From Patescibacteria group bacterium (lineage in GTDB: Bacteria > Patescibacteriota > Patescibacteriia > Patescibacteriales > UBA12465), in NCBI GenBank assembly GCA_049318005.1, contig JBMOHE010000003.1, positions 5,183 to 69,182 of the forward strand: 64,000 bases of DNA, read 5' to 3'. Position 1 is the stretch's first letter, and each line of letters begins with the position of its first letter. The translations under genes were made by a program, and so were the position numbers. This document shows positions 5,848-62,168 of this stretch, in pieces. The notes beneath the pieces were generated by a model. It was not told the DNA's origin, did no database searches, and saw nothing but the letters and a program-made list of their open reading frames with translations.

Positions 5848-5907
5848 TTATAGTTAACAAACAAAGTACTTTCTAAATATAATATTAAAACCATAGGAGG
5901 CAATATA

Positions 5908-6348
5908 ATGAAAACCAGGAAAAATTTAGCGCCAGTAGAGCATATTATAGATTGTAATTTAGAGCCAAATAGCACTCTGAGCTGGAAAATTGTCAGACAT
6001 ATAAAAGGAGGAATTATAAATTTCGACGTAAACAAGGTGACCTTGTATTTATCAGAAAAGCAGCAGAAAGGAGAAATTCAGGGCGAAGCTTTAATGAGAG
6101 AATTAAATGGTCTGCCGGTTATGAACTCTAATGTACTGACATACTTAATCCATCACCCTGAAATAATTCCAAAAAAATGGAAGAATAAGAAAATCTATTT
6201 TTGGGGAACTATTTCATCTGGAGAAGTATATACTTTCGTTCATTGTCTTTGTTGGTTTGATGGAAAATGGGTGGTTCGTGCTAGCTCGCCAGATAGATAT
6301 TTTGGCCGCAATTGCCCAGCCATTCTTTACGATTATAAAAACCCTTGA
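5908..6348 (+). CDS. Hypothetical protein (146 aa)
   Basis: ORF with its own promoter-like element and an AGGAGG SD. I recognise no motif in it. Confidence 0.55.
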   Translation: MKTRKNLAPVEHIIDCNLEPNSTLSWKIVRHIKGGIINFDVNKVTLYLSEKQQKGEIQGEALMRELNGLPVMNSNVLTYLIHHPEIIPKKWKNKKIYFWGTISSGEVYTFVHCLCWFDGKWVVRASSPDRYFGRNCPAILYDYKNP

Positions 6349-14933: not shown

Positions 14934-15104
14934 ATGAAAAAGAAAACTGCTAAAAAAGTTGTAAAAAAAGTTGCAGCTAAAAAACCAGCTAAGAAAGTTG
15001 TAAAGAAGGCTGTTAAAAAAGTTGTAAAAAAAGTTGCAGCTAAAAAACCAGCTAAAAAAGTTGTAAAAAAGGCTGTTAAAAAAGTTGCAAAGAAAAAGAA
15101 ATAA
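14934..15104 (+). CDS. Lys/Ala/Val-rich histone H1-like DNA-binding protein (56 aa); below the ORF-track size cutoff
   Basis: Hand translation gives MKKKTAKKVVKKVAAKKPAKKVVKKAVKKVVKKVAAKKPAKKVVKKAVKKVAKKKK*. A strong SD (aaagggggtg) lies 6 nt upstream, with a promoter before and a terminator after. Confidence 0.7.
   Translation: MKKKTAKKVVKKVAAKKPAKKVVKKAVKKVVKKVAAKKPAKKVVKKAVKKVAKKKK
14952..15077 (+). repeat. 2 x 63-nt in-frame tandem repeat inside the histone-like gene
   Basis: Units 14952-15014 and 15015-15077 differ only at a few synonymous aag/aaa positions. Each encodes KKVVKKVAAKKPAKKVVKKAV. Confidence 0.85.
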
Positions 15105-15166
15105 AATTAATTAAAATTTATTAGTATTTTATTAGTAAATTTTATTATTTTAAAAATTATACAAAA

Positions 15167-47202: not shown

Positions 47203-50200
47203 ATGAAAAAAAACAAACTGATTATTTTTTGGCTTATTGTTATTTTGTTTGTGCCACTTATTATTTTAAATGTCACTCTTGCCCAAACAAATACGTCTGC
47301 CAATAATTCTAGCGGCTCTTATGTGAATAGTAATGATGCTATCGGTGTAAGAATTATTCCAAATAATGATCATCTCAGTATTTCTAGCTGGTATAAAAGT
47401 AAGGGTTTCACTGGCGCGCCTCAAGCTTTGATAGTGGACGGTTATGAGGCTATTCGTGATGGTCGAACGGTTTATGTAAATGCAGCCAACGTTAAGGGAA
47501 AACAAATTTTTACAAATATTTATTTGATTTCATATAACCAGGATCCTTCAATAAAAACTATTGATATTCTTGGCCAAATTGTTAAAAACTGGAAATTCAA
47601 TACTGACTTAGTTGAGAGAACTAACCCAGCTCCAAGCTGTGAAATATCTTCTGTATCTTGCACGACAAATGCGGATTGTGTTTCCAACCAAATATGTAGC
47701 ACTTCGGCTAATGATTCACCTTATTCCTTTTCTACTCCTAATTCATGCCAATTAAAAACAACTAAATATTGTCTAACTGACAGTGACTGTCCTACGAGCT
47801 TTTTCTGTAGTAGTGCTAAAGCAAAAATAATTAGAGACATGAAAAGAATTAGCAAGACTGAAGATTTAAAAGAAGCCTTATATAAGTATAAATCAGCTAA
47901 GGGATATTACCCTAAATTATCAGCTGGGAGTTATTTAAGTAATCAAACTATCTCTGCTTGGCCAAGTTGGTCCGAATCTTTTTTATCAGAATTATCTCTG
48001 CCTAGTATTACAGATCCAGTTAATCGTTTAGGCGCTTGTCCTGGTTATGACGCTAAGACTTGTTGGAATAAAGATACAAGAAGATTTTATAGTGCGTCTA
48101 ATGGAAGTTTGCTATTACCAGCTGGAAGCTTTGGTTTTGTTTACAAAACTGATTCTCAAGGATCAACCTTTGATCTTTGCTCTGTTATGGAGACCAGGGA
48201 ACCGACAACCGATTTGAACTTTCAATTTTCACCGGCTATGCCAGTTAATTCAAATTGTGTTTTAGCAACTGGAGTATTATCTAACGGAACATTATCTAAT
48301 ACCGCGCCTCATATAACTAATTCCTATTTAATGGGTGATACTGGGCAGGAATTTAAAGGCTCGCTTGAGGTTGTTGATAATCAGAATAATCCAATGACTT
48401 GGGATTTTAATACAAGTGGAGTTAATTGGATTCAAGCCGGCTGGAGCGCGGCACCTACCCTAAAGGAGACGGCTAATCCTAATCAGAAGAAAATAACCGC
48501 GGTTAAAGCTGGTAACCCTGGCGTTTATCCGGTTAAACTAACGGTTACCGATGGAGTTAAAATCAATGGCCTAGTTGGGACTTTAAGCACAACTACTAAT
48601 ATAGTAATTGTTAATCCAAAATCATTTATTGAGGCTGAAAATGCTGAATATTTACTAAATCCAAAAACGACTTTTAATTATAGTTTTTATTTTTCAGATG
48701 ATAATTTGGTCGATTATAAAACGGCGTTTAAAGTGACAGCAATTAGTAGTAGTAATGCCTATAATCCCTTGAGTGCTCCAAGCTCTGTTGAAGCGGCAGG
48801 GATAAATCGTTATAAAGTAAATTACTTGGTAAAAATACCAGTTACAAGTAAATTTTATTTCGATGCTAATTATATTTATCGTTTAACGGTTAGTGATAAA
48901 TTTAGAGCGGAAACAACCAAGGATATAAAAATTGCCATTAAAAGCGCGGCCCCTAATTTGAATTTTAATTGTTCAAGCACTGGACGCTTGGGCTCAACTT
49001 ATTCTTGTTTACTTGGCCCTACTGAGCAGGCAGACCAAAAATTAACTTATTCTACTAATGGTTTAAATTTTGGAGGTTTAGTAATTACGAGTAACGCAAC
49101 TTCGTCATATTTAAGTTCTCAAGAAACTAATCTGCCAACTAGTGGTTCTAGTAGCACTACTGTAAGTATTAAAGTTACTAATGAATATGGCGCATCAACA
49201 ACAAAAGCTTTCAATTTAAGTCTTAAGACTTATTGTGGAGACGGAATTTTACAAGATAAAGAACCTAATACTGAGGCACGGGGTGGTATTTATAATGACG
49301 GTTATGAAGATTGTGATGGAACGGCCGGTGTTGCAACTTCGGTTTCAACTAGTTCGAGCAAACAATATGCTTGTACAACTTTTAACAAAAATACGCCTAA
49401 TCCAATTGTAACTAATGGATACTGCGTATTTAAGTCACCGGTTAATGGTGGCGGTTTCTGTGGTGACGGATATTGTCAAACAAAATATGAAAATAAGGAT
49501 AATTGTGATCAGGATTGTTTATCTATTTGTGTTCCTACTTGTGAGGCAAAGGGAAGTGATTGTGGTGATAATGGCTGCGGAGGAATTTGCGGGGAATGCA
49601 GTATAGGCGATGAATGTTTTGGGGGCAAGTGCTGTATGAAGGAGGCAACCATTAAAACTTCATTTTATTCAGGTAATCAGGCAGATGAAATAATTGAGGT
49701 TTATTTCAATGGCAAAAAAGGAGCCTTGTCTTCTAGCGGGAGTTTTGATGGGGTCGTTTCTCATGGTAAGAATGTTTTAGCAATTAAGGCAGATGGTTTT
49801 GAGTCTTTTGACAGAGCTATAGTTGCTAAACTTGACCAGATTTCCCAAACTATTAATCCAGTCACAAAACAAGCAAAAAACGCTTGTCGAGCCGTGACGA
49901 CCGATAATTTAAAAAATTGGAAATGTCGAAATACTATTAATAACGGAAGCTATATTACTCAAACTTGGGCAGATTTAGATTATAATGATTCTTCTTGGAC
50001 AAACCCAATAAATACTGGGACCACGACCCAAGGAGCAAATATTTGGGCCCTAGATTTTCTTGATGATGAACAATCAAAAACATCGCAGCAATTAACAACG
50101 GCTTATTGTCGCTATACTTTTACTGGAGACCAGTTAGATAGTGATCATTCAACTCCTGATTGCGCTGGTAAAGAATGTGGGCCAAACGGGGTTGGCGGCT

Positions 50201-51687
50201 CTTGTCGCCCAAATAATTGCCCGGCGATCAATATTGATTCAGCAAATAATAAACCTAACCAGAATTTTAAATGTAATGAGACTTTAGGAAAGTGTGAATG
50301 TACAAAAGATACGGCCGAAACAAGAAATGCTAACAATAACAAAATTGCTGGCCAAGAAGGCTCAGCTTGTGGAACTTTCAGTGATACTTGTAACGGCATG
50401 ACTAAGGCTGGAAATATTTGCGGGGAAGGCTTGTATTGCAATCTTTCAACTGCCAACAATAAAGCAAAAAATTATTATATTGGTGAGCATAGCTATGTTG
50501 CTCTTGGTATACAGATTTATGATAATACTTCAATTACTGAAAATGGTGGGGATCTTTCTCACAAGAATGACTACCAATTCATTACAAAGGGTTGTAATTC
50601 TAATGCGCCAGACAATACCTGCCAGAAGAAATGCTGGGACACTAGTATTACTAAAGAGTTGACCGTTAGACAAGGTGATATTCCTGAGACAACTACTTGT
50701 GCTCTTGCAAGTAAGAAGGAGGACCCTGATTGTGATGCTTCGGGCTACGCTAATCCAGCTTGTCCTAGCGATTGCGATGCAACGCGTACTGAGCTTACAG
50801 GAGGAAAAGGAATAAAGAATGACAGTTGCGTTAGAGGTTATTCTTGTTGGTTTGGCATGGCTACTTGTTATGAGTGGAATCGAAGATTGGCTTGGAGTTG
50901 CAGTGAAACAGTAACTACAAGAGCCTTTTTCGGTCAAAGTTGTGGCGCTGGCAATAATGCTATTGATGCTAGTGGTAACTGTACTTGTAAACCGATTGAT
51001 TGTGCTGGAAAGTGTGGGTCTAATGGATGCGGAGGTGTTTGTAATAACGGTTTATGTGGCGATTCTCAAATATGTAGTAGCGGCACTTGTGTAAGCTGTA
51101 GTCATGATTGTAGCGGTAAAGCTTGTGGTCAAGAAAATAGTTGTGGTGAAAAATGTTCTAGCGGTTCTTGCCCAACTTTGTCAAATGGAGTAGCGTTGAC
51201 TTGTGAAAATAATACTTGCACGTGTAAGCCTAATTGCGCCGGTAAGACCTGTGGCGCAGATGATAGTTGTGGAGGTAAATGTTATAATGTAAATAATACT
51301 TGTGGCGCAAGCCAATATTGTACAACCTTTGGATGTAGAGATAGCTTTGGAGCGTGCGAAAGTCAGACAGACAATTTGGACTATCAAGAAGTTTGTTGGT
51401 CTAAGGATAGCGAAGGGACTTGCCCGGCAAATAATCCGTATAAGTGCCTCTGGTTTACCGGCGGAACCTGTAGCAGCCTTAAAACTACTGGCCCCGCGCT
51501 TCAGGCTTGTGCAAGCATTTTAACTCGATCAGCCTGTAAAGCAGCAACCCCGACAAATTTATGCAGATGGATGTCTGACGGTTTCTGTACTAGCTTAGAA
51601 ATGAGCAAGAAATTAAGTTGCAAGATTAATCGCACTTTTGGTGACTGTGAAGCAGCCGCTGATTGCAGCTGGAATACTCTTGAATAA
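47203..51687 (+). CDS. Giant Cys-rich secreted protein 3 (1494 aa) with an embedded pseudopilin-like globular domain
   Basis: N-terminal signal/anchor. Residues about 205-330 (nt about 47815-48192) resemble type IV pilin/GspG globular domains (RDMKRISKTEDLKEALYKYKSAKGYYP...LPSITDPVN...FVYKTD...FDLCSVME). Repeated CxGKxCGxxxxCGGxC units and CGDG...CD repeats are also present. Confidence 0.8.
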   Translation: MKKNKLIIFWLIVILFVPLIILNVTLAQTNTSANNSSGSYVNSNDAIGVRIIPNNDHLSISSWYKSKGFTGAPQALIVDGYEAIRDGRTVYVNAANVKGKQIFTNIYLISYNQDPSIKTIDILGQIVKNWKFNTDLVERTNPAPSCEISSVSCTTNADCVSNQICSTSANDSPYSFSTPNSCQLKTTKYCLTDSDCPTSFFCSSAKAKIIRDMKRISKTEDLKEALYKYKSAKGYYPKLSAGSYLSNQTISAWPSWSESFLSELSLPSITDPVNRLGACPGYDAKTCWNKDTRRFYSASNGSLLLPAGSFGFVYKTDSQGSTFDLCSVMETREPTTDLNFQFSPAMPVNSNCVLATGVLSNGTLSNTAPHITNSYLMGDTGQEFKGSLEVVDNQNNPMTWDFNTSGVNWIQAGWSAAPTLKETANPNQKKITAVKAGNPGVYPVKLTVTDGVKINGLVGTLSTTTNIVIVNPKSFIEAENAEYLLNPKTTFNYSFYFSDDNLVDYKTAFKVTAISSSNAYNPLSAPSSVEAAGINRYKVNYLVKIPVTSKFYFDANYIYRLTVSDKFRAETTKDIKIAIKSAAPNLNFNCSSTGRLGSTYSCLLGPTEQADQKLTYSTNGLNFGGLVITSNATSSYLSSQETNLPTSGSSSTTVSIKVTNEYGASTTKAFNLSLKTYCGDGILQDKEPNTEARGGIYNDGYEDCDGTAGVATSVSTSSSKQYACTTFNKNTPNPIVTNGYCVFKSPVNGGGFCGDGYCQTKYENKDNCDQDCLSICVPTCEAKGSDCGDNGCGGICGECSIGDECFGGKCCMKEATIKTSFYSGNQADEIIEVYFNGKKGALSSSGSFDGVVSHGKNVLAIKADGFESFDRAIVAKLDQISQTINPVTKQAKNACRAVTTDNLKNWKCRNTINNGSYITQTWADLDYNDSSWTNPINTGTTTQGANIWALDFLDDEQSKTSQQLTTAYCRYTFTGDQLDSDHSTPDCAGKECGPNGVGGSCRPNNCPAINIDSANNKPNQNFKCNETLGKCECTKDTAETRNANNNKIAGQEGSACGTFSDTCNGMTKAGNICGEGLYCNLSTANNKAKNYYIGEHSYVALGIQIYDNTSITENGGDLSHKNDYQFITKGCNSNAPDNTCQKKCWDTSITKELTVRQGDIPETTTCALASKKEDPDCDASGYANPACPSDCDATRTELTGGKGIKNDSCVRGYSCWFGMATCYEWNRRLAWSCSETVTTRAFFGQSCGAGNNAIDASGNCTCKPIDCAGKCGSNGCGGVCNNGLCGDSQICSSGTCVSCSHDCSGKACGQENSCGEKCSSGSCPTLSNGVALTCENNTCTCKPNCAGKTCGADDSCGGKCYNVNNTCGASQYCTTFGCRDSFGACESQTDNLDYQEVCWSKDSEGTCPANNPYKCLWFTGGTCSSLKTTGPALQACASILTRSACKAATPTNLCRWMSDGFCTSLEMSKKLSCKINRTFGDCEAAADCSWNTLE

Positions 51688-51713
51688 TAATTTCACACTA
51701 TAAAATAATTTAT

Positions 51714-52043
51714 ATGAATATAAATCTAAAATTAGATAAGAAAAAAATAATTATTATTGGTTCGGTGGCCTTAATAATAATTTTAATTATTGTTTTCTCT
51801 ATCGTAATCTATCAAAAAAATAAATCAGCCGAAAATAATGGCGCAACTAAAACTGAAAAAATTTTTACGCCTGATTTTCTAAGCACTGAAGAAAAAACTA
51901 AGTTAGAAATTCCAACCGAGGTAAAAATTCAAGCGATGGCTAGAGATAAGAACGGTAAGGTTACTGTTTATAAAGTTATCAAGGGAACTTCTGATGTTGA
52001 AGATCCAGCTAAAGTTGAACCTATTAGCCCAAGATCTAAATAA
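51714..52043 (+). CDS. Small single-pass membrane protein
   Basis: One TM helix (IIIIGSVALIIILIIVFSIVIY). Co-directional with the cluster. Confidence 0.55.
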   Translation: MNINLKLDKKKIIIIGSVALIIILIIVFSIVIYQKNKSAENNGATKTEKIFTPDFLSTEEKTKLEIPTEVKIQAMARDKNGKVTVYKVIKGTSDVEDPAKVEPISPRSK

Positions 52044-52133
52044 ACAATTAAAACTTGCTGGTCAAGCAAAAAATTATTCGCTATAATTTAAATATTAATA
52101 AATAAGCCGCTTAAAGCGGTCACTCAAAAATAT

Positions 52134-52883
52134 ATGTTTAACGATCTTAATAATCCTAATGCCTCTGGTCATGCGGCCGTTGACGATATTTTTGCTGAAA
52201 CCGATAAAACGAACCAAAATAGCATGCCGTCAGACATTGAAACCCATAGAGTTGGTTTAGCAAATAATGGCAGTGTAGCGCCTTTGGTCAGCAATACTTT
52301 ATCTGAAAATATGGTTGAAACTCAAGGTGGTAAAAAAAATTATTTAAGAATTGTAATTATTGTTGTAATTGTTATAGCTATTTTAGGTGGTGCTTATTTT
52401 ACCTATTCTCAGTTTTTTGCGCCTAGTACTCAGGAAATAATTGCTACTACGACTCCTAAAGTTGAAAAGAAGGCTGTTGAGTCACCACTTGCTCCAAAAA
52501 CAGAGGATACTGGATTTGTTCCTGTTATCCCAGAGGCTGATCAAACTCCAGCCGTTGAATCAACTACTAGCGAAACGGATATAATTCCAAATACAGATGT
52601 TCCTACTACTGAAGATATAAATACTCCATCAGTCGATTTAGCTGTAGATTCAGATAGTGATGGCTTAACGGATGCTGAGGAGAAAATAGCCGGAACTAAT
52701 TCTAATGTTATTGATACTGATAATGACGGCCTAAGTGATTATGAGGAAGTAAAAATTTATTTAACTAACTCGCTTGCCGCCGATACTGATGGAGATTCTT
52801 ATTTAGATGGCGCCGAAGTTAAGGGTGGTTATGACCCTAATGTTAAGGGCGGAAAACTCCCTGGCAATACACCTAAAAATTAG
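52134..52883 (+). CDS. Single-pass membrane protein with thrombospondin type-3-like Ca-binding repeats
   Basis: A TM helix followed by DSDSDGLTDAEE, DTDNDGLSDYEE and DTDGDSYLDGAE. Confidence 0.7.
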   Translation: MFNDLNNPNASGHAAVDDIFAETDKTNQNSMPSDIETHRVGLANNGSVAPLVSNTLSENMVETQGGKKNYLRIVIIVVIVIAILGGAYFTYSQFFAPSTQEIIATTTPKVEKKAVESPLAPKTEDTGFVPVIPEADQTPAVESTTSETDIIPNTDVPTTEDINTPSVDLAVDSDSDGLTDAEEKIAGTNSNVIDTDNDGLSDYEEVKIYLTNSLAADTDGDSYLDGAEVKGGYDPNVKGGKLPGNTPKN

Positions 52884-52906
52884 TTTTTTTGGGTTTAATT
52901 TTCCTT

Positions 52907-53107
52907 ATGTTAAAAAGTAATAACTCTAAACCAAATTCGCGACCAAGTATGTTTGGCGGCAGCGTTAAAAGGCCGACTCTTTCCCTGAACCTACATACTA
53001 TGCCGCAAACAATTACTAGCCACTGGACAAGGTGGCTGGTTTTAGGTTTTGTTATTTTATCTATATTTGCGGTAGCCTCATTCTTGCTTTATTCTTTTAC
53101 GCAATAA
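52907..53107 (+). CDS. Small C-terminally anchored membrane protein (66 aa)
   Basis: ATG at 52907 with a C-terminal TM helix (WLVLGFVILSIFAVASFLLY). Weak call. Confidence 0.35.
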   Translation: MLKSNNSKPNSRPSMFGGSVKRPTLSLNLHTMPQTITSHWTRWLVLGFVILSIFAVASFLLYSFTQ

Positions 53108-53110
53108 TCT

Positions 53111-54157
53111 ATGTTTGGCGCTAAAAAGAAAATAAAAAAAAATGATGAAAGTGCGGAGATAACTCTAAAAGTTAATTCTGATTTGCTTGTGCGTAATATG
53201 CCCAGCTTAGCAAAGCTCACTAATACTTCGCTATCTTCGAACCTAAAACCAGCTCAAGCAAGCCATAATGTTCTATCCTCGATTGAAAGGCCGACTGGCA
53301 ATAAGCACCAGACGGTTGGAATATTGATTATTCTAGGCGGCTGCATTTTAATTGGAGCCTTGGTTTATTTGAGCTATATTTTTATTATTAAACCGCAAGC
53401 CGCTAGCAATGTTAAAAAAGTGGTAGCTCCTGAACCAGCTAAAAATAGCGTTATAAATATTAAACCGGCTACTAGCAGCGAAGAAATAATTACACCGGTA
53501 GCAAGTATCGTTGCGACTATTACGCCAACAGCTCTGGGTTTAGAAGATATCGCTTCGACGACTACTATGGCCGAAGAGTCGACTGGACGAAATAGTATTG
53601 ATTTACCACCTCTTCTCGATACTGATAGTGATGGCTTAATTGATGATGAGGAAACAGTTTTAGGCGCAAACCCTAATGCCGAAGATTCAAACAACAATAA
53701 TTATAAGGATGCAGCTGAGCTAGCTAATAACTATGATCCAGCCGGAAGCGGTAAAATTGAGACTAATAAATATTTAGCCAAATATGCCGACAATGCCAAT
53801 ACTTATGATTTTTTATATCCAAAAGATTGGGAATTTAGTATTTTAAATAATAATTCAATTATTATTTTTAATTCACCAGACGACTCAATTATCCAGGTTT
53901 CTGTCCAAGAAAATACTACTAAACAAGCTATTCTAGCTTGGTATAACGAGTCTTTCCCTGACAGCGCACTTACTAGTGACAGGTTAAAATCGACGGGTAC
54001 TTGGGATGGAGTTATGAGCGACGACGGTTTAAATTTTTATTTAACTGATAAAAAAAAGGCTAATATTTACGTAATTTCATATATTCCAGCCGTGATGAAT
54101 CGCCTTGCTTATCCAAATATATTTAAGCTAATGATAAACTCATTAGTAATAAAATAA
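53111..54157 (+). CDS. Single-pass membrane protein with one DxDxDG repeat and an unknown C-terminal domain
   Basis: TM helix (VGILIILGGCILIGALVYLSYIFII), then DTDSDGLIDDEE, then a globular C-terminal region of about 130 aa. Confidence 0.65.
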   Translation: MFGAKKKIKKNDESAEITLKVNSDLLVRNMPSLAKLTNTSLSSNLKPAQASHNVLSSIERPTGNKHQTVGILIILGGCILIGALVYLSYIFIIKPQAASNVKKVVAPEPAKNSVINIKPATSSEEIITPVASIVATITPTALGLEDIASTTTMAEESTGRNSIDLPPLLDTDSDGLIDDEETVLGANPNAEDSNNNNYKDAAELANNYDPAGSGKIETNKYLAKYADNANTYDFLYPKDWEFSILNNNSIIIFNSPDDSIIQVSVQENTTKQAILAWYNESFPDSALTSDRLKSTGTWDGVMSDDGLNFYLTDKKKANIYVISYIPAVMNRLAYPNIFKLMINSLVIK

Positions 54158-54158
54158 A

Positions 54159-54187
54159 TAGACAATCAGCCTAAATTTTGCTATAAA
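54159..54187 (+). promoter_or_regulatory. Putative promoter of the ncRNA/RT operon (extended -10)
   Basis: TAGACA at 54159-54164, a 17-nt spacer, then TGc-TATAAA at 54179-54187. The predicted TSS at about 54192-54196 coincides with the first base of the ncRNA closing helix. Confidence 0.45.
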
Positions 54188-54194
54188 TAAGATA

Positions 54195-54388
54195 TTAGCT
54201 AGCTTATAAAGTCGTCGTAGCCACCTAAATTTATTTAGGGTACCAAAAATTATAGTATTAGTCGTCTTATTCGTTGGTACCGTGGCGCCTAGTAGTATAA
54301 TTAGCACCCATCACTGGGTTCAATACTATTTTCGATTTGTGATGCGCCGTTTGGTGGCATCGCGCTACGGCGACTAGCTAGTTTTTTT
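54195..54388 (+). ncRNA. Structured non-coding RNA immediately upstream of the RT (retron msr-msd-like or DRT-type ncRNA candidate)
   Basis: A 247-nt gap with no ORF. The long-range closing helix is 54195-54221 paired with 54364-54381: 11 bp gtcgtcgtagc/gctacggcgac plus 6-7 bp tagctag/ctagcta, with a 5' bulge. Internal hairpins are 54224-54239 (cctaaa/tttagg), 54239-54281 (ggtaccaa/ttggtacc) and an extended imperfect hairpin at 54284-54348. It ends in T7 (54382-54388), 16 nt before the RT ATG. Confidence 0.55.
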
Positions 54389-54404
54389 ATAGTTAATATT
54401 TAAT

Positions 54405-55616
54405 ATGAAAAATCAGATTATTGATCTAGCGAATATTAAACAGGCTTACTTAGACCTTGCAAATCAATTTGAAGAAAAATTAAAGACGACCCGTTATACC
54501 GGGTTTGATTCTGTTAAGTTAACAGATGTTGATTATAAGGCTACCGGTATTTTAGATGAGGTTAGGTCTGATTTAGTAAATTCTGCACCGCTTACTCCAG
54601 TTAGATTAGTTAATATTTTAAAAAAAGACGGGAAAAAAAGGGAAGTTTTCATTTTGACTGTTAAGGATAGAATTAGAGCTAGGGCAATTTATCGAATTTT
54701 AGAACCACTGTTTGAGTTAAATTATAGTCCTTATCTTTTTTCCTATCGCTCAAGTCACCCCAGCGCCTATGCGGCTCGGAGCGTTGCTAGACGCTACCAT
54801 CGTTATTTTGGCCAGGATTATGTCATGACAATTGATATAAAAGATTATTTTAATTATCTTGACCATGATGTAATTAGAAAACAGCTCACTGCGCTTGGCA
54901 TAAAAAACGATGTTCTAGAAATGATTGAGCCATTTTTTAAGATAAAACTCTGGCAGAATGGCAAGCTAGTTACTTGGGATAAAGGAATCCCTCAAGGTAC
55001 TCCTTTCAACTCTTTATTTTCAAACTACTATTTAACAGATCTTGATAACGAGCTAGGCTCAAAGGTCTCTCTCTATAGGCGAGTCGGTGACGATTTAATT
55101 GCCTTTGATAAAAATAAGGAAAAATTAGAAGAAGTTTTTAATCTAGCTAAAAAAAGAATTACCGATCTCGGGCTAGTAATTCAGGATAAAAAAACTCATT
55201 TTGCTAAGAATACTGAGGAATTTTCCTATTTAGGTTATCTTTTTAAAGATAATTCTCTCCGTTTACGTTCTGGGCTAGTTCGAGAATTAAAAATTGCTTG
55301 GCATAAAGAATTAAAATATAATCATTCTAGTTTAGAAAAAAAAGTTTCAAAATTAAAAAGTTTGTGTTTTTTCTCAGAAAATAATTTTCAAACTCAGTTT
55401 TTAGAAATTTTAAAACAGCATCAACAGCTAGATGACGATGAGGGGGTTAAGCAGTTGTCTAATCAATTCTATAATTATGTAGCGGCTTATCTATTTGGTA
55501 AAGCGACGCCGAGAAATAGGCGTTTAGCCAAAGAAAAACTTAAAGAAATAAAAATACCTTCTTTTTATGAGTATTACTTGGCCTACAGACGGGGCAAAAA
55601 AAAGTCCGCGGCTTAA
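54405..55616 (+). CDS. Reverse transcriptase (403 aa), non-intron, non-DGR type
   Basis: RT motifs in order: 1/2 KKDGKKREVFILTVKDRIRARAIY; 3 SYRSSHPSAYAA; A YVMTIDIKDYFNYLDH; B GIPQGTPFNSLFSNYYL; C YRRVGDDLIAF (nt 55083-55094 encode VGDD); D/E KTHF...FSYLGYLF. An alpha-helical thumb-like tail follows. Confidence 0.9.
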   Translation: MKNQIIDLANIKQAYLDLANQFEEKLKTTRYTGFDSVKLTDVDYKATGILDEVRSDLVNSAPLTPVRLVNILKKDGKKREVFILTVKDRIRARAIYRILEPLFELNYSPYLFSYRSSHPSAYAARSVARRYHRYFGQDYVMTIDIKDYFNYLDHDVIRKQLTALGIKNDVLEMIEPFFKIKLWQNGKLVTWDKGIPQGTPFNSLFSNYYLTDLDNELGSKVSLYRRVGDDLIAFDKNKEKLEEVFNLAKKRITDLGLVIQDKKTHFAKNTEEFSYLGYLFKDNSLRLRSGLVRELKIAWHKELKYNHSSLEKKVSKLKSLCFFSENNFQTQFLEILKQHQQLDDDEGVKQLSNQFYNYVAAYLFGKATPRNRRLAKEKLKEIKIPSFYEYYLAYRRGKKKSAA

Positions 55617-57324
55617 ACTTTTTCAAGCACGACGAAGTATTAAATTTGAAAATGGGCGCCTAACTATTACCCGGTGGCAGTATAGGCGTTTAAAAAAATT
55701 TTACATTCAGCATAAAACTAAATTTTTTTGGTTATTTTTATGTTTAATAGTTCAGTCTCTGCTGGAAATTTCTTTGCCAGTTTTTAGCTCGGTAATTGTA
55801 AAAGAAGTAAATATTTTTATTTACAATAAGCAAATTGTCTCATATCTTTCCGTTTTGTTTTTAGGTGTGGCTGTTTATTTAGTTAGTGCCTTTCTATATT
55901 TATTAGTCGAAAAAACTTTAATTATTCAGTTAATTAATGAGCTTAGAGAACATTGGTTCAAATTATTTTTGTATCGCGCACCCAATCGAACTAATAGTCG
56001 CGATAAAGCAAAATTATTAGCGAAGGTTACTTATCATTTTTCTTTGCTCCAGGTAAGTTTAGGTGCCTCTATAGGTGGCGCTCTACGCTGGACTATAAAC
56101 TTTTTTGTTCTTTTAGCCTTTGCTTTAACTAGTAGCTGGTCTTTAGTTTTTTATGTTTTGGCCAGCTCTATTTTTAGCATAATTTTGTTAGTAATTGGTT
56201 ATTATATTGGTTTGTATTATTTAAGTCGTGAAGCCTCGCTTTCTAGCGCTATTATTAGCCATATTTCTGAACAAGCTGACCAAGTTTCATTACTACAAAA
56301 TCAAGCTAGAGAGAAGGAATCAATAAACCAAATGCGTCGCCTTGTAGCTCTCGACTCCGTTCTTAAAATACGAAGAACTCTTTGGATGAATTATGGCAAT
56401 AAACTTATATATTCTTTAATTGTTATTTCGACAGTCTTAGTCATAGTTGTGCCTAGCATTTTTCCTGATATTAATTTCGCGTCACTTCTGTCAGGAATAG
56501 ATATATTTTTTGGCTTGATAGTCGCCTTGCTAATTCGACAGCTATATTTAGGACTGAGAATCGGCTTGAATGCAGTGCCAACGCAAATCGGCCTTTCTTT
56601 GTCATTGCCGCAGCCCGAAAGTCCGAGGGTAAGACTGGACAAGGTTGGAGAATTTAAGGAAATTGTTTTTAAATCAAAAAAGTTTAAATTGACCCCTGGC
56701 GGTAGTTATTTTAAAAACGTTGAAATACTATTTAAGTCTGGTTGCGCGTATTTATTTTTTGGCGAGCTTGGATCAGGAAAAAATCAATTAGCAAAAATTT
56801 TTAGTGGTCGCTCAATAGAAGAGGGGAAGCCCTGGATAATCAGGCTTAATGGAGAAAGATATCTATATAAAGAATGGCGTAGAGTTTCTCGTCGAGCTTT
56901 TTTTGTAAGTGGCAAGATTGCTGGCGGAGCATCGCTCGCTGAAATTATTTCCGGAGAAGCAAAGACGAAAATTAAATCCGAACAAATTGAAAAAATTTGT
57001 CTTCTTATAGAAGAAATACCGGCCTTAAACTTTTTAAATAATATTCCAAAATTAATTGCGGCCAATATTGATCAAACATCTTTTACGGAAGCGGAAAAAG
57101 TTTTAGTGGAACTAGCTTATTGTTTAATTAGGGAGCCAAATTTAATCGTTATTGATGACTCAGTTTTTTATTTACCTGACCCAAGAATTAAAGAGATGTT
57201 AGAAATATTAGCGCCTCGTTTAAAAAAATCAATTATAATTTTATTTTCAAGACATAAATTAGACTATTTAGACTTTACTAATATTTATGAAATCAACAAA
57301 AAGTTTTTTAAAGAAAATTCCTAG
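55567..57324 (+). CDS. ABC-exporter-like membrane protein with a degenerate nucleotide-binding domain (585 aa)
   Basis: A basic N-terminus and about 6 TM helices arranged like type-I ABC exporter TMDs. The C-terminal NBD has Walker A GELGSGKN (nt 56761-56784) and Walker B LIVIDD (57142-57159). FTEAE stands in place of the LSGGQ signature. The H-loop-like segment is SRHKL. It overlaps the RT by 50 nt. Confidence 0.75.
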   Translation: MSITWPTDGAKKSPRLKLFQARRSIKFENGRLTITRWQYRRLKKFYIQHKTKFFWLFLCLIVQSLLEISLPVFSSVIVKEVNIFIYNKQIVSYLSVLFLGVAVYLVSAFLYLLVEKTLIIQLINELREHWFKLFLYRAPNRTNSRDKAKLLAKVTYHFSLLQVSLGASIGGALRWTINFFVLLAFALTSSWSLVFYVLASSIFSIILLVIGYYIGLYYLSREASLSSAIISHISEQADQVSLLQNQAREKESINQMRRLVALDSVLKIRRTLWMNYGNKLIYSLIVISTVLVIVVPSIFPDINFASLLSGIDIFFGLIVALLIRQLYLGLRIGLNAVPTQIGLSLSLPQPESPRVRLDKVGEFKEIVFKSKKFKLTPGGSYFKNVEILFKSGCAYLFFGELGSGKNQLAKIFSGRSIEEGKPWIIRLNGERYLYKEWRRVSRRAFFVSGKIAGGASLAEIISGEAKTKIKSEQIEKICLLIEEIPALNFLNNIPKLIAANIDQTSFTEAEKVLVELAYCLIREPNLIVIDDSVFYLPDPRIKEMLEILAPRLKKSIIILFSRHKLDYLDFTNIYEINKKFFKENS

Positions 57325-58771
57325 AATTCCAAAACGGATAGTTTTAATTTTTTTTGGCGTTATTATTCTTGTCATGTTGATTGCAGCATCAGTTTTTTGG
57401 TTAATTGATAGTAGATTATTTAACAATAAGTACGCGCCAAAGTATTCAGAAGAAGCTCCTCGCAACCTTGAAGCGGAAATTTTATTTAATAATAAAGTTG
57501 GTGAGAGCGAATTTTCAGCCGCCTTTGTTGGTCTGATCAGGAGTGCAAGTTCAAGTATTGATTTAGCAATGTATTCTCTTGATTCGACTGAAATTAGAGA
57601 TGAACTTTATAAGGCTGCTAATCGTGGGGTGATTGTCAGAGCAGTCGTTTCTTCAAATAAAAGAACCCAATACAATAATTTATTTAAAGACAAGCCAGCT
57701 AATGTCTTCTTAAGTGAGGAAAATTTGGGCCCCAAACAGAACGGCTTTATGCATAATAAATATATTATTAGTGATGCAAATAGTAGTAAAAAGACAATGA
57801 TTACAGGGTCTTTTAACTCAACTCGTCTTCAGGAGTTATATGATCCGAGCTTCATATTTAAGACTTATGATGAGACTATGATTAAATACTACGGCCAAGA
57901 ATTTGAACGTCTATTTTCCGGGAAATCTGGTTTGGCTAAATTTAATGATAAAACTTATAGTGCTTGGCAGGCGGATTTGAATTATAAAAATGGAAAAATG
58001 GAAATTTGGTGGAGCCCTGGTTCTGGCGAGGTAACTATAAAAAAAAGAATGCTCGAGCTCATTTATCAGGCCGAGGAATCTATTGATATCATGATTTGGC
58101 AGACGACGGATAAAGAAATCTCTCAAGCTCTAATTGATAAAGCGGCTAGCGGTGTTAAGGTAAGAATTATTGCTGATGACTCTAACGCCTGGCTCGATGT
58201 TTCCGCGCTTCCCCAGATAGTCGCCGCCAGTTTAAATTCTAATAACTTAATTATTGTTGATGACGCGGCCAGAACAGTTGATTTTTTAAATGAGATATTT
58301 AAAGACTCTCTAGTCGATAAAAATAACTTTAATTCTTTTCTGCATCACCATGCTTTAATAATTGATAAGAAAATCTTAATTTCTGGGAGTGGAAACTGGA
58401 GTTATAGTGCTAATTTCAGTAATGATGAAAACACATTAATTACTACAGTGCCCGATTTAATTAAATTGTATCAAGACTCATTTGATTTTAATTTTAATAA
58501 GTTACATAAACAAAGTTTAGAATTCAAATTAAGTCAGGAAGAGATAATCCTTCCCAATTTGAATTCTTATCTTGGTTATAATCTAGTTTTATTAGGAGAA
58601 GATTCAAAATCAGCGCCTATGACCCAGATTTGTTCAAGTGAAATAATCAGACTTAATGAATTTAAAATAAAAATTCCTGAAAATTGTAAAAATAAAGCTT
58701 TAAATATTTTTATTATTAATTCAACTGGTGAAGTTGAGGCTAATCGCTTGATTGGAAAAATTAATATTTAG
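57287..58771 (+). CDS. Membrane-anchored PLD-superfamily protein (two HKD-type lobes; nuclease or phospholipase)
   Basis: Basic N-terminus plus a TM helix (IVLIFFGVIILVMLIAASVFWLI). HKD1 is HNKYIISD...GSFN (nt 57752-57775). HKD2 is HHHALIID...GSGN (nt 58343-58366), with His in place of Lys. It overlaps the ABC-like gene by 38 nt. Confidence 0.8.
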   Translation: MKSTKSFLKKIPRIPKRIVLIFFGVIILVMLIAASVFWLIDSRLFNNKYAPKYSEEAPRNLEAEILFNNKVGESEFSAAFVGLIRSASSSIDLAMYSLDSTEIRDELYKAANRGVIVRAVVSSNKRTQYNNLFKDKPANVFLSEENLGPKQNGFMHNKYIISDANSSKKTMITGSFNSTRLQELYDPSFIFKTYDETMIKYYGQEFERLFSGKSGLAKFNDKTYSAWQADLNYKNGKMEIWWSPGSGEVTIKKRMLELIYQAEESIDIMIWQTTDKEISQALIDKAASGVKVRIIADDSNAWLDVSALPQIVAASLNSNNLIIVDDAARTVDFLNEIFKDSLVDKNNFNSFLHHHALIIDKKILISGSGNWSYSANFSNDENTLITTVPDLIKLYQDSFDFNFNKLHKQSLEFKLSQEEIILPNLNSYLGYNLVLLGEDSKSAPMTQICSSEIIRLNEFKIKIPENCKNKALNIFIINSTGEVEANRLIGKINI

Positions 58772-58796
58772 TCTTGCGCTTTAAAGTTTCATAAAT

Positions 58797-58831
58797 AAAA
58801 AAACGAGACGATTAGTTCGTCTCGTTTTTTA
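58797..58831. terminator. Bidirectional terminator closing the RT operon (+) and clpP (-)
   Basis: aaaaaaacgagacga-ttagt-tcgtctcgtttttt. Confidence 0.8.
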
Positions 58832-58846
58832 TTTTATTTATAGATT

Positions 58847-59425
58847 TTATTTTTTGATTATTTTATCAATTATTCCGTAAGCCTTAGCTTCGTCAGCGCT
58901 CATATAGTAATCTCTATCGCTATCTTTCTCGACTATCTCCGGCTTTTTTCCAGTATGAGCGGCAATGATTTTATTTAGTCTATCTTTTGTCTTTAAAATA
59001 TGAGCAGCGTGAATTTTAATGTCTGACGCTTGCCCTTCGGTTCCGCCCATGACTTGATGAATCATAACTTCGCTATTTGGTAACGCAAAACGTTTTCCTG
59101 GTTCTCCGGCCGCTAATAGAACCGAAGCCATCGAAGCGGCCATGCCTATGCAAATAGTCGTGACTGGTGATTTTATATATTGCATGGTGTCGTAAATTGC
59201 TAAACCGGCCGAAACTGACCCCCCGGGGGAATTAATATAGAATTTAATGTCTTTATCGCTATTTTCGGCATCAAGGAAGAGAAACTGGGCAATTACGATA
59301 TTAGCAGTATGATCGTCGATTGCTTCGCCCAAAAAGATGATTCTATCCTTTAAAAGACGGGAATATATATCGTAAGCACGCTCTATTTGGCCCTCTTTTT
59401 CAATAACTGTAGGTATTAATGGCAT
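58847..59425 (-). CDS. clpP: ATP-dependent Clp protease proteolytic subunit
   Basis: INSPGGSV, active-site Ser in GMAASMAS, and His in MIHQ. Confidence 0.92.
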
Positions 59426-59627
59426 ATTTTTACTTGTCCGCCTGGGGCGGATAATTATTTAATAACCCTATTATAAACAAAATACGCGTTTTTGTAAAGA
59501 TTTGTTGAGCTGTTTGGGTGCAGGGAGCTTGATTTTTATTTTTAACTATTCTAAGATTTTAGGGTCTGAAACTAATATAAAATAAATTCGACCATTTTTA
59601 GGTCGATTACATTTTTTTCATAATATT

Positions 59628-61178
59628 ATGTCATTTAAGCAAAAATTCTCGAAATTGTCTGAGCGGGCGAAAGCCGGGTGGATTTTAGGAATTATTATGA
59701 TTTTCGCAGTCATGGTTGCCTTAACCGTGGGTGGAAATATTTATAATAATTTTGCAAAAAATTTATCAAAAAAAACTAATCAAATTGTTTCTTTGCCACT
59801 TGTTACTGAAATTCCTTTCAGTCTTGGCTTAGATCTTCAGGGTGGTACTCATTTAGTTTATCAAGCTGATGTAAAAAATATTCCCGAAGCTGATAGAGCT
59901 GGGGCTTTAGAAGCAGCTCGTGATGTTATTGAGCGCCGAGTTAATGCTTTTGGCGTTAGTGAGCCGGTTGTTCAAGTAAATCAAGGCATAAATGGAGAAT
60001 ATCGTATTATTGCTGAACTAGCCGGAATTAAAGATGTTAATGAAGCGATTAAATTGATTGGTGAAACTCCTATTCTTGAATTTAAAGAACAGGGAACTGC
60101 CGTTGCAACAACGGGAACAACGTCATCTTCGACTGCTGAACTCACTCAAGATTGGAAGAACACGGAATTAACTGGAAAATATTTAAAGAGAGCTTCTTTA
60201 CAATTCAATCCTAATGATGGTTCACCTGAAGTTAATTTAGAGTTTAACGCTGAGGGGTCTAAAATGTTTGAAGAAATTACTGGCAGAAATATTGGCAAGC
60301 CAGTTGCTATTTTTCTTGATGGCTATCCTATTAGTGTGCCAACTGTTAATGATAAAATTACCGGTGGTTCAGCTAGCATCTCTGGACGCTTTAACGTTGA
60401 AGAAGCTAAACTTTTAGTTAAACGTTTAAATTCTGGAGCTTTGCCAGTTCCAATTAGTTTAATCTCTCAGAAAACTGTTGAAGCTAGTCTTGGCGCTAAA
60501 TCTATTGATAATAGCATGAAGGCGGGTTTAATCGGCTTGTTACTGGTTTCTATTTTCATGATTTTATATTATCGTCTACCAGGAGTCTTGTCAGTTTTAT
60601 CTTTATTAGTTTACGGCTTAACAGTTCTAGCTATTTTTAAAGCCTTGCCTGTTTGGTTAGCTTTAATTCTGGTTGTAACCATGATAGGTCTAATATTCTA
60701 TACTTTTAGTGAGCTTAAAATATTTAATGGAACTCTCGCTGTATTATTTTCAGTTATTGGGGTTTTATTATTCTTTTATGCTCAACAAGCAGTAACCTTA
60801 TCCTTATCTGGCGTCGCTGGGTTTATTCTTTCAATCGGCATTGCCGTTGATGCAAATATTTTAATCTTTGCTCGTACTCGAGAAGAATTAAAACTTGGGA
60901 AATCAGTTAGCCAGGCGATTGACAGTGGGTTTAAACGTGCTTGGCCATCAATTCGCGATGGTAACGTTTCGACTATTATTACTTGTTTAATTTTAATGTT
61001 CTTTGGAACATCTTCCGTTAAGGGTTTCGGAACAACCTTATTTATCGGTATTGCTGTATCTTTATTCAGTGCCATTGTTATCACCCATACTTTATTTGTT
61101 TTAATTCTAGGTGATTGGCTTGAAAAGAGAACTTGGCTACTTGGAGTTAAAAAAGCTAAGGTAGAAGAAAATAAATAA
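59628..61178 (+). CDS. secD: Protein translocase subunit SecD
   Basis: LGLDLQGG, a periplasmic P1 domain, and the C-terminal 6-TM bundle with GIAVDANILIF. Confidence 0.9.
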   Translation: MSFKQKFSKLSERAKAGWILGIIMIFAVMVALTVGGNIYNNFAKNLSKKTNQIVSLPLVTEIPFSLGLDLQGGTHLVYQADVKNIPEADRAGALEAARDVIERRVNAFGVSEPVVQVNQGINGEYRIIAELAGIKDVNEAIKLIGETPILEFKEQGTAVATTGTTSSSTAELTQDWKNTELTGKYLKRASLQFNPNDGSPEVNLEFNAEGSKMFEEITGRNIGKPVAIFLDGYPISVPTVNDKITGGSASISGRFNVEEAKLLVKRLNSGALPVPISLISQKTVEASLGAKSIDNSMKAGLIGLLLVSIFMILYYRLPGVLSVLSLLVYGLTVLAIFKALPVWLALILVVTMIGLIFYTFSELKIFNGTLAVLFSVIGVLLFFYAQQAVTLSLSGVAGFILSIGIAVDANILIFARTREELKLGKSVSQAIDSGFKRAWPSIRDGNVSTIITCLILMFFGTSSVKGFGTTLFIGIAVSLFSAIVITHTLFVLILGDWLEKRTWLLGVKKAKVEENK

Positions 61179-61189: not shown

Positions 61190-62104
61190 ATGATTTATAA
61201 GATAATCCAAAAAAGAAAAATTTTCTTAACCCTATCAAGTCTAGCCGCTGCCGCTTCTATCTTCGCACTTTTTTTCTGGGGTTTGAATTTCGGTATCGAT
61301 TTTACAGGAGGAAGTTTGATGGAAGTCGAGTTTAGTAATTATAAACCTAGTGTTACTGAAGTTCAGGATAGCTTAAAAAATGTTGATCTTCATGGTTTAG
61401 TAATTCAGCCAACTGAAAATTCTGTTATTTTACGTTTTAAAGAAAATACGGAAGACGTCCATCAATTAGTTGCTAAAAATCTTCAGGAATTAGTTAAAAA
61501 TAAACAGGGGGCAAGCTTTAAGGAATTACAATTTGATTCAGTCGGCGCCTCTATTGGGCAAGAATTAAAAAGTAAATCATTCAATGCAACTGTGATTGTA
61601 TTTATAATGATTATTCTTTATATCTCCTGGGCGTTTAAAGGCGTATCTAAGCCAGTGGCTTCATGGAAATATGGCGTAGCTGCTATTATCGCCTTAATTC
61701 ATGATATTTTATTTATTCTCGGTGTGTTTTCAGTTCTTGGTCATTTTTATGGGATTGAAGTTAACACTCCGTTTATCGCCGCTGTTTTAACTGTGCTTGG
61801 TTATAGCGTAAGTGATACTATTATTGTATTCGATCGTATTCGTGAAAACTTACCGAAGAGCCATGAAGATTTTGAGAACACAGTTAATCGTAGCGTTAAC
61901 CAAACCTTAACCCGTTCAATTAATACCTCTTTCTCGGCTGTTTTAGCCCTACTAGCTATTTTATTCTTTGGTGGCAGTACTATTAAAGATTTTGCCCTTG
62001 CTCTAGCGATAGGTATTGCAGTTGGTACATATAGCTCTATCTTTATTGCTAGTCCAGTTCTTGTTGTTTGGGAGAAGTTAAAACAATCAAAAAAAATCGT
62101 TTAA
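61190..62104 (+). CDS. secF: Protein translocase subunit SecF
   Basis: GIDFTGG, HDILFILGVF, GYSVSDTIIVFDRIRE. Confidence 0.9.
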   Translation: MIYKIIQKRKIFLTLSSLAAAASIFALFFWGLNFGIDFTGGSLMEVEFSNYKPSVTEVQDSLKNVDLHGLVIQPTENSVILRFKENTEDVHQLVAKNLQELVKNKQGASFKELQFDSVGASIGQELKSKSFNATVIVFIMIILYISWAFKGVSKPVASWKYGVAAIIALIHDILFILGVFSVLGHFYGIEVNTPFIAAVLTVLGYSVSDTIIVFDRIRENLPKSHEDFENTVNRSVNQTLTRSINTSFSAVLALLAILFFGGSTIKDFALALAIGIAVGTYSSIFIASPVLVVWEKLKQSKKIV

Positions 62105-62120
62105 GAAAGACGAAAATATA

Positions 62121-62150
62121 AAAAAATGGGCTGTTTTCAGCCCATTTTTT
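62121..62150 (+). terminator. Rho-independent terminator after secF
   Basis: aaaatgggctg-tttt-cagcccatttt followed by more T. Confidence 0.8.
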
Positions 62151-62168
62151 ATTTGCTATAATAAGGAG

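Follow-up and report, generated by a model that had tools for sequence, protein, structure and literature searches.

What can an ATP-binding cassette (ABC) exporter do once the residues for ATP hydrolysis have gone, and what is its business beside a reverse transcriptase (RT)? This question is raised by a 64,000-nucleotide stretch of DNA from a Patescibacteria group bacterium (contig JBMOHE010000003.1 of assembly GCA_049318005.1), referred to here as the window. It contains a gene for a 585-residue protein resembling ABC exporters (hereafter the ABC-like protein), located between the genes for an RT and for a protein of the phospholipase D (PLD) superfamily. An earlier note on this DNA described the protein as a half-transporter with a selectively degenerate ATPase site, taken into the service of an RT system. 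As judged from sequence, the cassette comprises four parts: a structured non-coding RNA (ncRNA), an RT with an intact active site, the ABC-like membrane subunit and a signal-anchored PLD-type phosphodiesterase. All coordinates without a locus prefix are positions in the 64-kb window and are collected in Table 1.

A Type IV ABC Exporter Homolog

The ABC-like protein is a genuine homolog of type IV ABC exporters, with a similarity far above chance. Two Pfam families are matched, each slightly below its gathering score (ABC_membrane, 1.2e-4, and ABC_tran, 4e-5; 22.3 and 24.7 bits, with gathering cut-offs of 28 and 25). Among PDB sequences phmmer returns MsbA (3b5x) at E = 1.2e-7 over residues 121–569, followed by ABCB1, TAP1 and others, and a search with the profile of the ABC-like family meets canonical exporters of the ABC type at E-values between 1e-13 and 1e-9.

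The AlphaFold2 model (mean predicted local distance difference test score, pLDDT, 69) shows a basic N-terminal extension, six long helices (residues 50–86, 90–137, 144–189, 191–241, 249–298, and 313–346) and an alpha/beta nucleotide-binding domain (NBD; residues 362–585, pLDDT 75–90). This confirms the order of basic N-terminus, about six transmembrane (TM) helices and NBD that had been read from the sequence. The type-I exporter fold, for which a Foldseek search with an AlphaFold model had been suggested, was recovered with MsbA (7bcw) as the best PDB match (E = 1.9e-14, full length, ~585 columns). Full-length matches are to type IV exporters only (MsbA, TAP, BmrCD, PCAT1, HlyB, ABCB10, McjD, and TmrAB), with E-values of 1e-14 to 1e-12 for MsbA, TAP, PCAT1, and HlyB.

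A Nucleotide-Binding Domain without Catalytic Residues

Relatives of the ABC-like protein were gathered by a word-seeded search of 5.8 billion proteins, which returned just six close ones, and by comparing a profile exhaustively with 1.84 billion cluster representatives, which returned 80 members at E < 1e-30 and about 95 (counted as representatives at 50% identity) before a clear score gap. Past this gap the matches carry GxxGxGKS, LSGGQ, ILDE, and the H-loop His, and it is only there that the profile search meets canonical ABC exporters. The case named in the earlier note as refuting its proposal, that of close homologs with canonical motifs working as ordinary transporters unlinked to RTs, found no support in these searches: no close homolog with canonical motifs turned up, and none unlinked to an RT.

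A census of motifs in 69 full-length relatives shows the degeneracy throughout, so that it is a family trait and not a local accident. The signature LSGGQ is found in none of the 69, and neither is S-G-G-Q/E; the window protein has FTEAE at this position. The catalytic Glu is present in three relatives and replaced by Asn in 37, with Asp in the window protein (LIVIDD), and the Q-loop Gln occurs in at most two, the window protein having Gly there (FVSGK). All three losses had been recognized correctly from the window sequence, as had the Asn that ends its Walker A (GELGSGKN). The Walker B Asp is kept in 61 of the 69. A canonical Walker A (GxxxxGK[ST]) persists in 36 and is lost in ~45%; the Walker A of relatives usually ends in GK[ST], and the Asn ending is peculiar to the window sequence. 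The H-loop His (SRHKL) is retained in the window protein as claimed, but at most three relatives have it, and the description of the site as "selectively" degenerate is therefore wrong for the family, in which this residue is not conserved. Both the Walker A Asn and the H-loop His thus appear as idiosyncrasies of the window sequence.

To judge from these alignments, the family has shed every residue for ATP hydrolysis and for signature-mediated sandwiching of ATP, and in many members ATP binding too would probably fail. Because residues of the Walker side and of the signature side are both absent from the same polypeptide, a homodimer would have two dead composite sites, as had been anticipated, and so would any heterodimer. 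Nucleotide binding, which had been offered as a function of the domain, cannot be its universal function since so many members have lost Walker A.

A Conserved Transmembrane Domain

Conservation is concentrated in the other half of the protein, and the linker between TM6 and the NBD is strongly conserved too. Positions conserved in at least 85% of the 69 relatives fall almost wholly in the transmembrane domain (TMD) and its cytoplasmic extensions, the best conserved residues being E67 in the middle of TM1, N124 and R127, then K153, Y156, H157, and L160 in the coupling helix of intracellular loop 1 (ICL1), and D263, K267, and R270. To these belongs a motif at the end of TM6, RxxYxSLRxGL[FY]xxP. 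The TMD motifs are kept in nearly all 69 members, even in those whose NBD motifs are obliterated, and canonical ABC exporters lack them. This pattern suggests that selection acts on the membrane domain and on its coupling to an NBD that is structurally kept and chemically inert.

The RT–ABC–PLD Cassette

The ABC-like ORF (open reading frame) overlaps the RT ORF by exactly 50 nt, as had been noted, and the PLD ORF by 38 nt. The same gene order (RT, ABC-like, PLD) with overlapping ORFs is found in 13 of 13 complete loci, with RT identity down to ~32% and overlaps of 30–60 nt, which bears out the proposal of an exporter scaffold co-opted as a dedicated RT partner. Loci were reached through close ABC-like relatives (L001, L003, and L004), through a 27%-identical ABC-like member in a metagenome-assembled genome of Patescibacteria (L006), through RT relatives of 32–66% identity (L009, L010, L011, L012, L013, L014, and L015) and through a PLD relative (L017).

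The flanks of the cassette vary between lineages and consist of housekeeping or cell-surface genes. Within lineages they are shared: the window and L012 have the cassette by clpP-secD, L003 and L013 by tRNA-Trp and ahpC, and L001 and L004 between pilin genes and ligA. Within lineages the cassette is therefore inherited vertically. A terminator-like hairpin closes it in the window, between the PLD stop codon and a convergent clpP. The RT family comprises at least 146 clusters at E < 1e-10, and most of the named ones belong to Patescibacteria (Pace-, Komeili-, Magasanik-, and Peregrinibacteria). The cassette is not limited to tiny genomes, since one cluster sits on contigs of 3.0 and 5.5 Mb. Carriage by phages or other mobile genetic elements was rejected: a scan of viral contigs with the ABC-like profile gave no match, and the RT profile matched a single one, at its end and without recognizable phage genes.

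In L017 gene calling divides the ABC-like gene (4324–6029) into two ORFs (210 and 352 aa) with 14 nt between them, a candidate for a genuine split, a frameshift or a pseudogene. This relative is often sampled, its PLD protein (P0292) being indexed in 85 blocks of the collection.

The Reverse Transcriptase

The RT matches Pfam RVT_1 (2.5e-24), and its best PDB match is the GsI-IIC RT (7e-20). Among PADLOC models the generic RT scores best (7e-43), followed by UG26 (1e-31 to 1.5e-37) and UG17 (4e-31), which are the nearest profiles of defense RTs; both align with the RT core only, at ~107 bits, and generic RT and group II models score higher.

Membership in three known classes was examined and rejected. 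Against a group II intron, the NCBIfam RT/maturase model TIGR04416 reaches 158 bits (cut-off 300) with the RT core alone aligned, and Rfam at E ≤ 1 over positions 52000–60000 gives no group II match. Against a retron RT, NF038233 gives 54 bits (cut-off 235), and PADLOC retron RTs (1e-12 to 3e-17) rank below the UG models. For a diversity-generating retroelement (DGR), no repeats of the template/variable (TR/VR) type were found between the region upstream of the RT and the whole window or 12 other loci; the only repeat recovered was the tandem duplication of the ncRNA in L003, and the RT carries PQG and not the DGR-type motif. UG38, the RT group of the candidate phyla radiation (CPR) (Mestre, 2022), gave no family-level match for 22 RTs, and neither did any other PADLOC UG family. 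A 44-nt match of the 3' end of the RT gene to positions 63366–63409 was considered as a second RT remnant; it lies inside an ORF for a multi-TM protein resembling O-antigen ligases and was judged a chance match.

The Upstream Structured ncRNA

Ahead of the RT lies a gap of 247 nt with an unusually high G+C content for the host genome and a fold z-score of -5.5. P1 is the terminal stem of the ncRNA within it, whose other elements are a 5' hairpin, a helix that forms a pseudoknot (GGUACC/GGUACC), a long hairpin, the conserved single-stranded block UCAAUACUAUUUUCGAUU and, with CCGUUUGG as its loop, a 3' hairpin; a T-run follows at ~54386–54392. L001, L003 (as a tandem pair), L004, L012, and L013 have homologous blocks at the corresponding place, ahead of the RT. 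RNAalifold predicts 48 pairs, 33 with compensatory changes. With a structure specified by hand, including the pseudoknot, 95.8% of cells pair, compared with 34–49% when partners are slid, and 39 of 51 pairs show double changes, the pseudoknot helix included; none of 500 shuffles reaches the observed values.

A covariance model (R1) built from six sequences scores 134–160 bits on the known copies (149 bits in the window) and also finds a copy in L015 that had no part in training (50 bits, E = 7e-12). A distance of 1.2 kb, which contains two ORFs on the opposite strand, separates this copy from its RT, and for this reason a stand-alone RNA is favored over an mRNA leader. An Rfam search (E ≤ 1, positions 52000–60000) assigned no family and gave a single sub-threshold match, on the terminator.

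Directly upstream of the ncRNA in the syntenic loci is tRNA-Trp (L003 5949–6022, L013 4550–4623). In L003 the 3' end of this tRNA and ~25 further nt recur ~200 nt downstream (~6190–6240), with the look of an att-type direct repeat; no integrase gene is nearby.

The PLD Partner

The PLD protein matches Pfam PLDc_2 twice (4e-39) and NCBIfam NucT (8.6e-23). It is closest by sequence to NucT, Nuc, and Zucchini in the PDB and to DrmC in PADLOC (9e-17), where MkoC is also matched. Motif 2 reads HxHxxxxD...GxxNW in 8 of 8 aligned relatives. The AlphaFold2 model is confident (pLDDT 90.8) and its best PDB matches by Foldseek are the bacterial PLD 7e0m, PLD3/PLD4, and vaccinia F13; phosphatidylserine (PS) synthases and classical PLDs come next. 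Both PLD3 and PLD4 are anchored in the membrane in type II orientation and act as 5' exonucleases on single-stranded DNA (ssDNA).

A single N-terminal hydrophobic helix occurs in 21 of 21 close relatives, with 3–10 Lys/Arg on its N-flank and fewer on its C-flank. The positive-inside rule is established for membrane protein topology and, with this charge bias across the TM segment, predicts an extracytoplasmic catalytic domain; the PLD thus probably faces outward. In the model the catalytic fold begins ~10 residues past the TM helix, which would place the active site at the membrane surface. In the long PLD forms the number of Cys is exactly two, each located in the C-terminal beta domain, and the next relatives outward are secreted PLDs of Bacteroidota with tails for the type IX secretion system (T9SS).

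Proposed Role and Alternatives

The leading account, put forward tentatively, is that the four-part cassette is a conflict (anti-phage) system built on an RT and an ncRNA, in the manner of the defense-associated RTs (DRT) and retrons, with a non-hydrolyzing ABC scaffold and an ecto-PLD as its membrane module. It is favored because the closest functional analog is DRT10 (UG17), which consists of an ncRNA, an RT and a transmembrane SLATT effector (PMC12632851). There, ncRNA-templated cDNA made by the UG17 RT accumulates on infection and is the proposed activator of the TM effector, and constitutive cDNA is restrained by an ssDNA exonuclease (PMC12632851; 10.64898/2026.04.29.721553). The recurrence of PLD nucleases in defense systems (DrmC and MkoC in PADLOC) also speaks for a conflict system. 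The family-wide loss of the ATPase site, the constraint on the TMD, the linkage in all 13 loci, the conserved RT active site, the covarying ncRNA and the position of UG26 and UG17 as nearest defense-RT profiles count in its favor too.

In such a system the RT–ncRNA complex would make cDNA, and the cDNA, or the RT–RNA–DNA complex itself, would be read at the cytoplasmic face of an ABC-like homodimer by a surface formed from the degenerate NBDs and the intracellular domain rich in Arg, Lys, Tyr, and His. Binding instead of hydrolysis would drive the inward/outward switch of the TMD, which would open the membrane, or actuate or feed the PLD held on the outer face, and the infected cell would stop growing or die. 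The ABC-like protein would fill the role played by SLATT in DRT10 or by the 2TM proteins in type IV retrons.

Several observations weigh against the conflict-system account. The RT scores group II intron profiles above any UG profile. The covariance model R1 is silent in the most distant loci (L009–L011 and L014), where 3' look-alikes are seen by eye only. The loss of Walker A in ~45% of members means that a nucleotide-gated model cannot be general. The cassette sits amid housekeeping genes and outside recognizable defense islands, and the synteny of the window with L012, L003 with L013, and L001 with L004, at 45–66% RT identity, indicates less turnover than is typical of defense genes. Finally, the predicted outward position is an odd place for an abortive-infection nuclease and would suit a route for nucleic acid or lipid across the membrane no less well. 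This outward PLD is awkward for simple abortive infection and therefore keeps three alternatives alive.

The one that survives best, though unlikely, is a trans-membrane conduit: the ssDNA product of an RT docked on the cytoplasmic face would be threaded outward through the ATPase-dead ABC dimer, DNA polymerization would supply the force in place of ATP, and a PLD3/PLD4-like ecto-enzyme would trim, release or degrade the strand at the outer face, either as disposal that keeps the system off or as production of extracellular or surface DNA. The three proteins are distributed over three compartments, with the RT predicted in the cytoplasm because it has no TM segment, the ABC-like protein in the membrane, and the PLD attached by a single TM segment with a basic N-flank (21/21). 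The two Cys confined to the C-terminal domain of long PLD forms, the T9SS-secreted outgroup, the presence of the ssDNA 5' exonucleases PLD3/PLD4 among the top structural matches and the modeled active site at the membrane surface are in line with this arrangement, as are the Arg, Lys, Tyr, Trp, and His among conserved residues of the intracellular domain; the overlaps between all ORFs are consistent with a stoichiometric complex. Continual removal of cDNA by an exonuclease is needed in DRT10 (10.64898/2026.04.29.721553). Against the conduit stand the conserved acidic E67 in the middle of the membrane in TM1, the PLD topology, which is a prediction, and the Foldseek matches of the PLD to lipid-acting PLDs and PS synthase (1e-16 to 1e-15). 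In addition, no ABC exporter is known to pass nucleic acid.

Those lipid-acting matches point to a further alternative, an improbable one, in which a non-hydrolyzing scaffold of the flippase/scramblase type (related to MsbA and ABCB4) would present phospholipid to the outward PLD, which, once licensed by the RT module, would degrade the membrane from outside. The structures nearest to the ABC-like protein are those of lipid flippases (MsbA), and the PLD has true phospholipases D and PS synthases among the matches to its fold, a modeled active site that adjoins the membrane and an intact first HKD motif; sequence profiles, however, group the PLD with the nucleases Nuc, NucT, Zucchini, and DrmC and not with the lipid enzymes Cls/PLD, and the second HKD motif is HxH.

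Considerably less probable still is a device for uptake or salvage in the ultra-small CPR bacteria, with the surface PLD nicking or degrading external DNA or RNA, the ABC-like channel admitting a strand and the RT copying it inside as a ratchet. PLDs of the NucT type take part in DNA uptake, Patescibacteria are the main hosts and the cassette often adjoins genes for pilins or large surface proteins. On the other side, an ncRNA that is dedicated and conserved speaks for cDNA templated by the system itself, the ABC-like protein has an exporter fold, a family of ~100–150 clusters is too rare for a general CPR trait and the cassette also occurs on contigs of 3–5.5 Mb.

An ordinary exporter, or the degenerate half of a heterodimeric one, beside the RT by chance is essentially excluded, because, although exporters with one degenerate site exist and appear among the Foldseek matches (TM287/288, BmrCD, and TmrAB), the Walker B/H-loop and signature sides are both degenerate in one polypeptide, so that both composite sites would be impaired with any partner, no cassette examined has a second ABC gene, and linkage to RT and PLD holds in all 13 loci across deep divergence.

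Neighboring Genes and Other Features

In ~7 of 10 independent lineages the same-strand genes upstream of the cassette encode pilin-like (N_methyl) proteins or giant secreted or surface proteins, a frequency that may not exceed the CPR background. In the window they include a 1494-aa secreted protein (47203–51687, + strand) with CGxxxCGxxC modules recurring in an extremely Cys-rich C-terminal half, and two membrane-anchored proteins of 249 and 348 aa (52134–54157, + strand) with repeated DSDGLxDxEE, calcium-binding motifs of the thrombospondin type 3 kind; a TSP3_bac protein resembling this pair occurs in L012 and another close to L010. That the giant secreted proteins are functionally linked to the cassette was rejected, the 1494-aa window protein and the 1467-aa protein of L006 not being homologous.

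Elsewhere in the window, a repeat scan detected a short ORF (14934–15115, + strand) made of Lys/Ala-rich 12-nt and 63-nt repeats of the AKKxxKK type, resembling histone H1. The multi-TM ORF at 62100–64000 (+ strand), which by eye resembles O-antigen ligases (Wzy-like), runs past the window end.

Table 1. Features of the cassette and its surroundings in the window, with related features in other loci.
Feature	Position (nt)	Strand	Basis or remark
Structured ncRNA, ~165 nt, upstream of RT	54211..54375	+	Fold z-score, covariation, covariance model
ncRNA copies	L003 6327-6544, 6614-6814; L004 6493-6658; L001 6482-6644		
ncRNA copies	L012 4807-4978; L013 4823-5025; L015 3566-3775		
Reverse transcriptase	54405..55616	+	403 aa; group-II-intron-like
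RT active site YRRVGDD	55074-55094	+	>80% conserved in 116 relatives
ABC-like half-transporter	55567..57324	+	585 aa; type IV ABC exporter-like; NBD predicted without canonical ATP hydrolysis capacity
Transmembrane domain	55714..56604	+	Six long helices with cytoplasmic extensions; AlphaFold2 secondary structure
E67, mid-membrane in TM1	55765	+	≥85% conserved
ICL1 coupling helix KAKLLAKVTYHFSLLQ	56005-56052	+	Family-defining motif
TMD motif YLSREASLS	56218-56244	+	Family-defining motif
TMD motif LDSVLKIRRTLW	56350-56385	+	Family-defining motif
TM6 end RQLYLGLRIGLNAVP	56536-56580	+	Family-defining motif
Degenerate NBD	56650..57321	+	Alignment with MsbA and family census
Walker A GELGSGKN	56761-56784	+	Residues 399-406; aligns with MsbA GSGKS (HMMER)
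Q-loop position FVSGK	56902-56916	+	Residues 446-450; aligns with MsbA "vsQ" (HMMER)
Signature position FTEAE	57082-57096	+	Residues 506-510; aligns with MsbA LSGGQ (HMMER)
Walker B LIVIDD	57142-57159	+	Residues 526-531; aligns with MsbA ILDE (HMMER)
H-loop position SRHKL	57247-57261	+	Residues 561-565; aligns with MsbA "aHrl" (HMMER)
PLD-superfamily protein	57287..58771	+	494 aa
PLD N-terminal signal anchor	57338-57406	+	Predicted
PLD HKD motif 1, HNKYIISD...GSFNST	57752-57823	+	Intact, invariant in family alignment
PLD variant motif 2, HHHALIID...GSGNWS	58343-58402	+	HxH, not HxK
PLD C-terminal beta domain, conserved Cys pair	~58631 and 58685	+	Family alignment
Bidirectional intrinsic-terminator-like hairpin	58798..58830	.	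14-bp stem, T-runs on both strands
Upstream pilin/giant-protein neighbors	window 47203-54157; L001/L004/L005 pilin genes; L006 64-4467; L009 1-5686		
Further upstream pilin/giant-protein neighbors	L011 5079-5651; L014 3569-4735; L016 1502-5719		

Significance

No description of an RT linked to an ABC exporter homolog and a PLD turned up in full-text searches of open-access literature, and an earlier account elsewhere is possible; nor does one appear in the searched or selected sections of the UG/Abi survey, the myRT paper, the FEMS review or the two DRT10 papers. On the best reading, the cassette would be an RT–ncRNA system of known type with an undescribed membrane module (the ABC-like protein and the PLD). 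With a smaller probability it belongs to a categorically new kind, namely in the event that nucleic acid passes through the membrane.

Should the cassette prove to be a defense or conflict system, it would bring a new effector logic to RT-based immunity, with an ABC scaffold that dispenses with ATP hydrolysis and an outward PLD. Few such dedicated systems exist in the Patescibacteria, a poorly understood group, and the cassette would be one of them. It would also provide a natural experiment on an ABC exporter fold without its engine, in which the TMD and coupling helices are conserved as the NBD motifs decay. The layout of compartments (RT inside, ABC-like protein in the membrane, nuclease-like PLD outside) raises the question of whether the RT product crosses the membrane. 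The chance is slim that reverse transcription itself powers ssDNA through the ATPase-dead ABC scaffold to a surface exonuclease of the PLD3/PLD4 kind, or in reverse draws nucleic acid in; either would represent the first ABC-fold conduit for nucleic acid and also the first case of secretion or uptake coupled to an RT. For developers of RT tools, a compact RT with a ~165-nt ncRNA may be of interest.

Comparison with Known Systems

The cassette resembles DRT10 and the class 2 UG systems in its free-standing RT, adjacent structured ncRNA and co-encoded membrane protein, and UG17, the DRT10 group, is with UG26 among the best defense-RT profiles for its RT. It differs from DRT10 in that no locus has a SLATT gene, the place being taken by the 585-aa ABC exporter homolog together with a PLD encoded by the system. 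The RT reaches just ~107 bits with the UG17 and UG26 profiles and more with those of group II intron RTs. The ncRNA without an Rfam match and the mainly patescibacterial hosts are further differences from DRT10 and the class 2 UG systems, and no PADLOC model matches the ABC-like protein.

Retrons show a similar succession of ncRNA, RT and effector genes, and the pairing of the ncRNA ends in a terminal stem is reminiscent of their a1/a2; the RT, on the contrary, gives 54 bits with a retron model whose cut-off is 235. We know of no retron type with ABC-exporter or PLD effectors in the Mestre 2020 classification.

The PLD is like PLD3 and PLD4 in that one type II membrane anchor at the N-terminus precedes a predicted HKD fold of two lobes, and like NucT, Nuc, Zucchini, and DrmC by sequence. 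It differs from PLD3/PLD4 and from Nuc, NucT, and Zucchini in the HxHxxxxD form of motif 2, in the additional C-terminal beta domain with its Cys pair and in having an RT as neighbor.

With MsbA, BmrA, TAP, PCAT1, and HlyB the ABC-like protein shares the elbow, the six TM helices with long intracellular extensions, the two coupling helices and the C-terminal NBD, and its family keeps the Walker B Asp of type IV exporters. Unlike these, the family is without LSGGQ, the catalytic Glu, the Q-loop Gln and a conserved H-loop His, its Walker A is eroding, and it has ICL1 and TM6-end motifs of its own as well as a constant linkage to RT and PLD. CFTR and SUR, which are eukaryotic C-family proteins, use the ABC exporter architecture as a ligand-gated switch with degenerate nucleotide sites and retain one competent ATP site. 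The role proposed here would likewise employ an ABC scaffold with degenerate sites for gating or regulation; in the ABC-like protein, unlike CFTR and SUR, both sites would be dead, and in many members the P-loop has gone as well.

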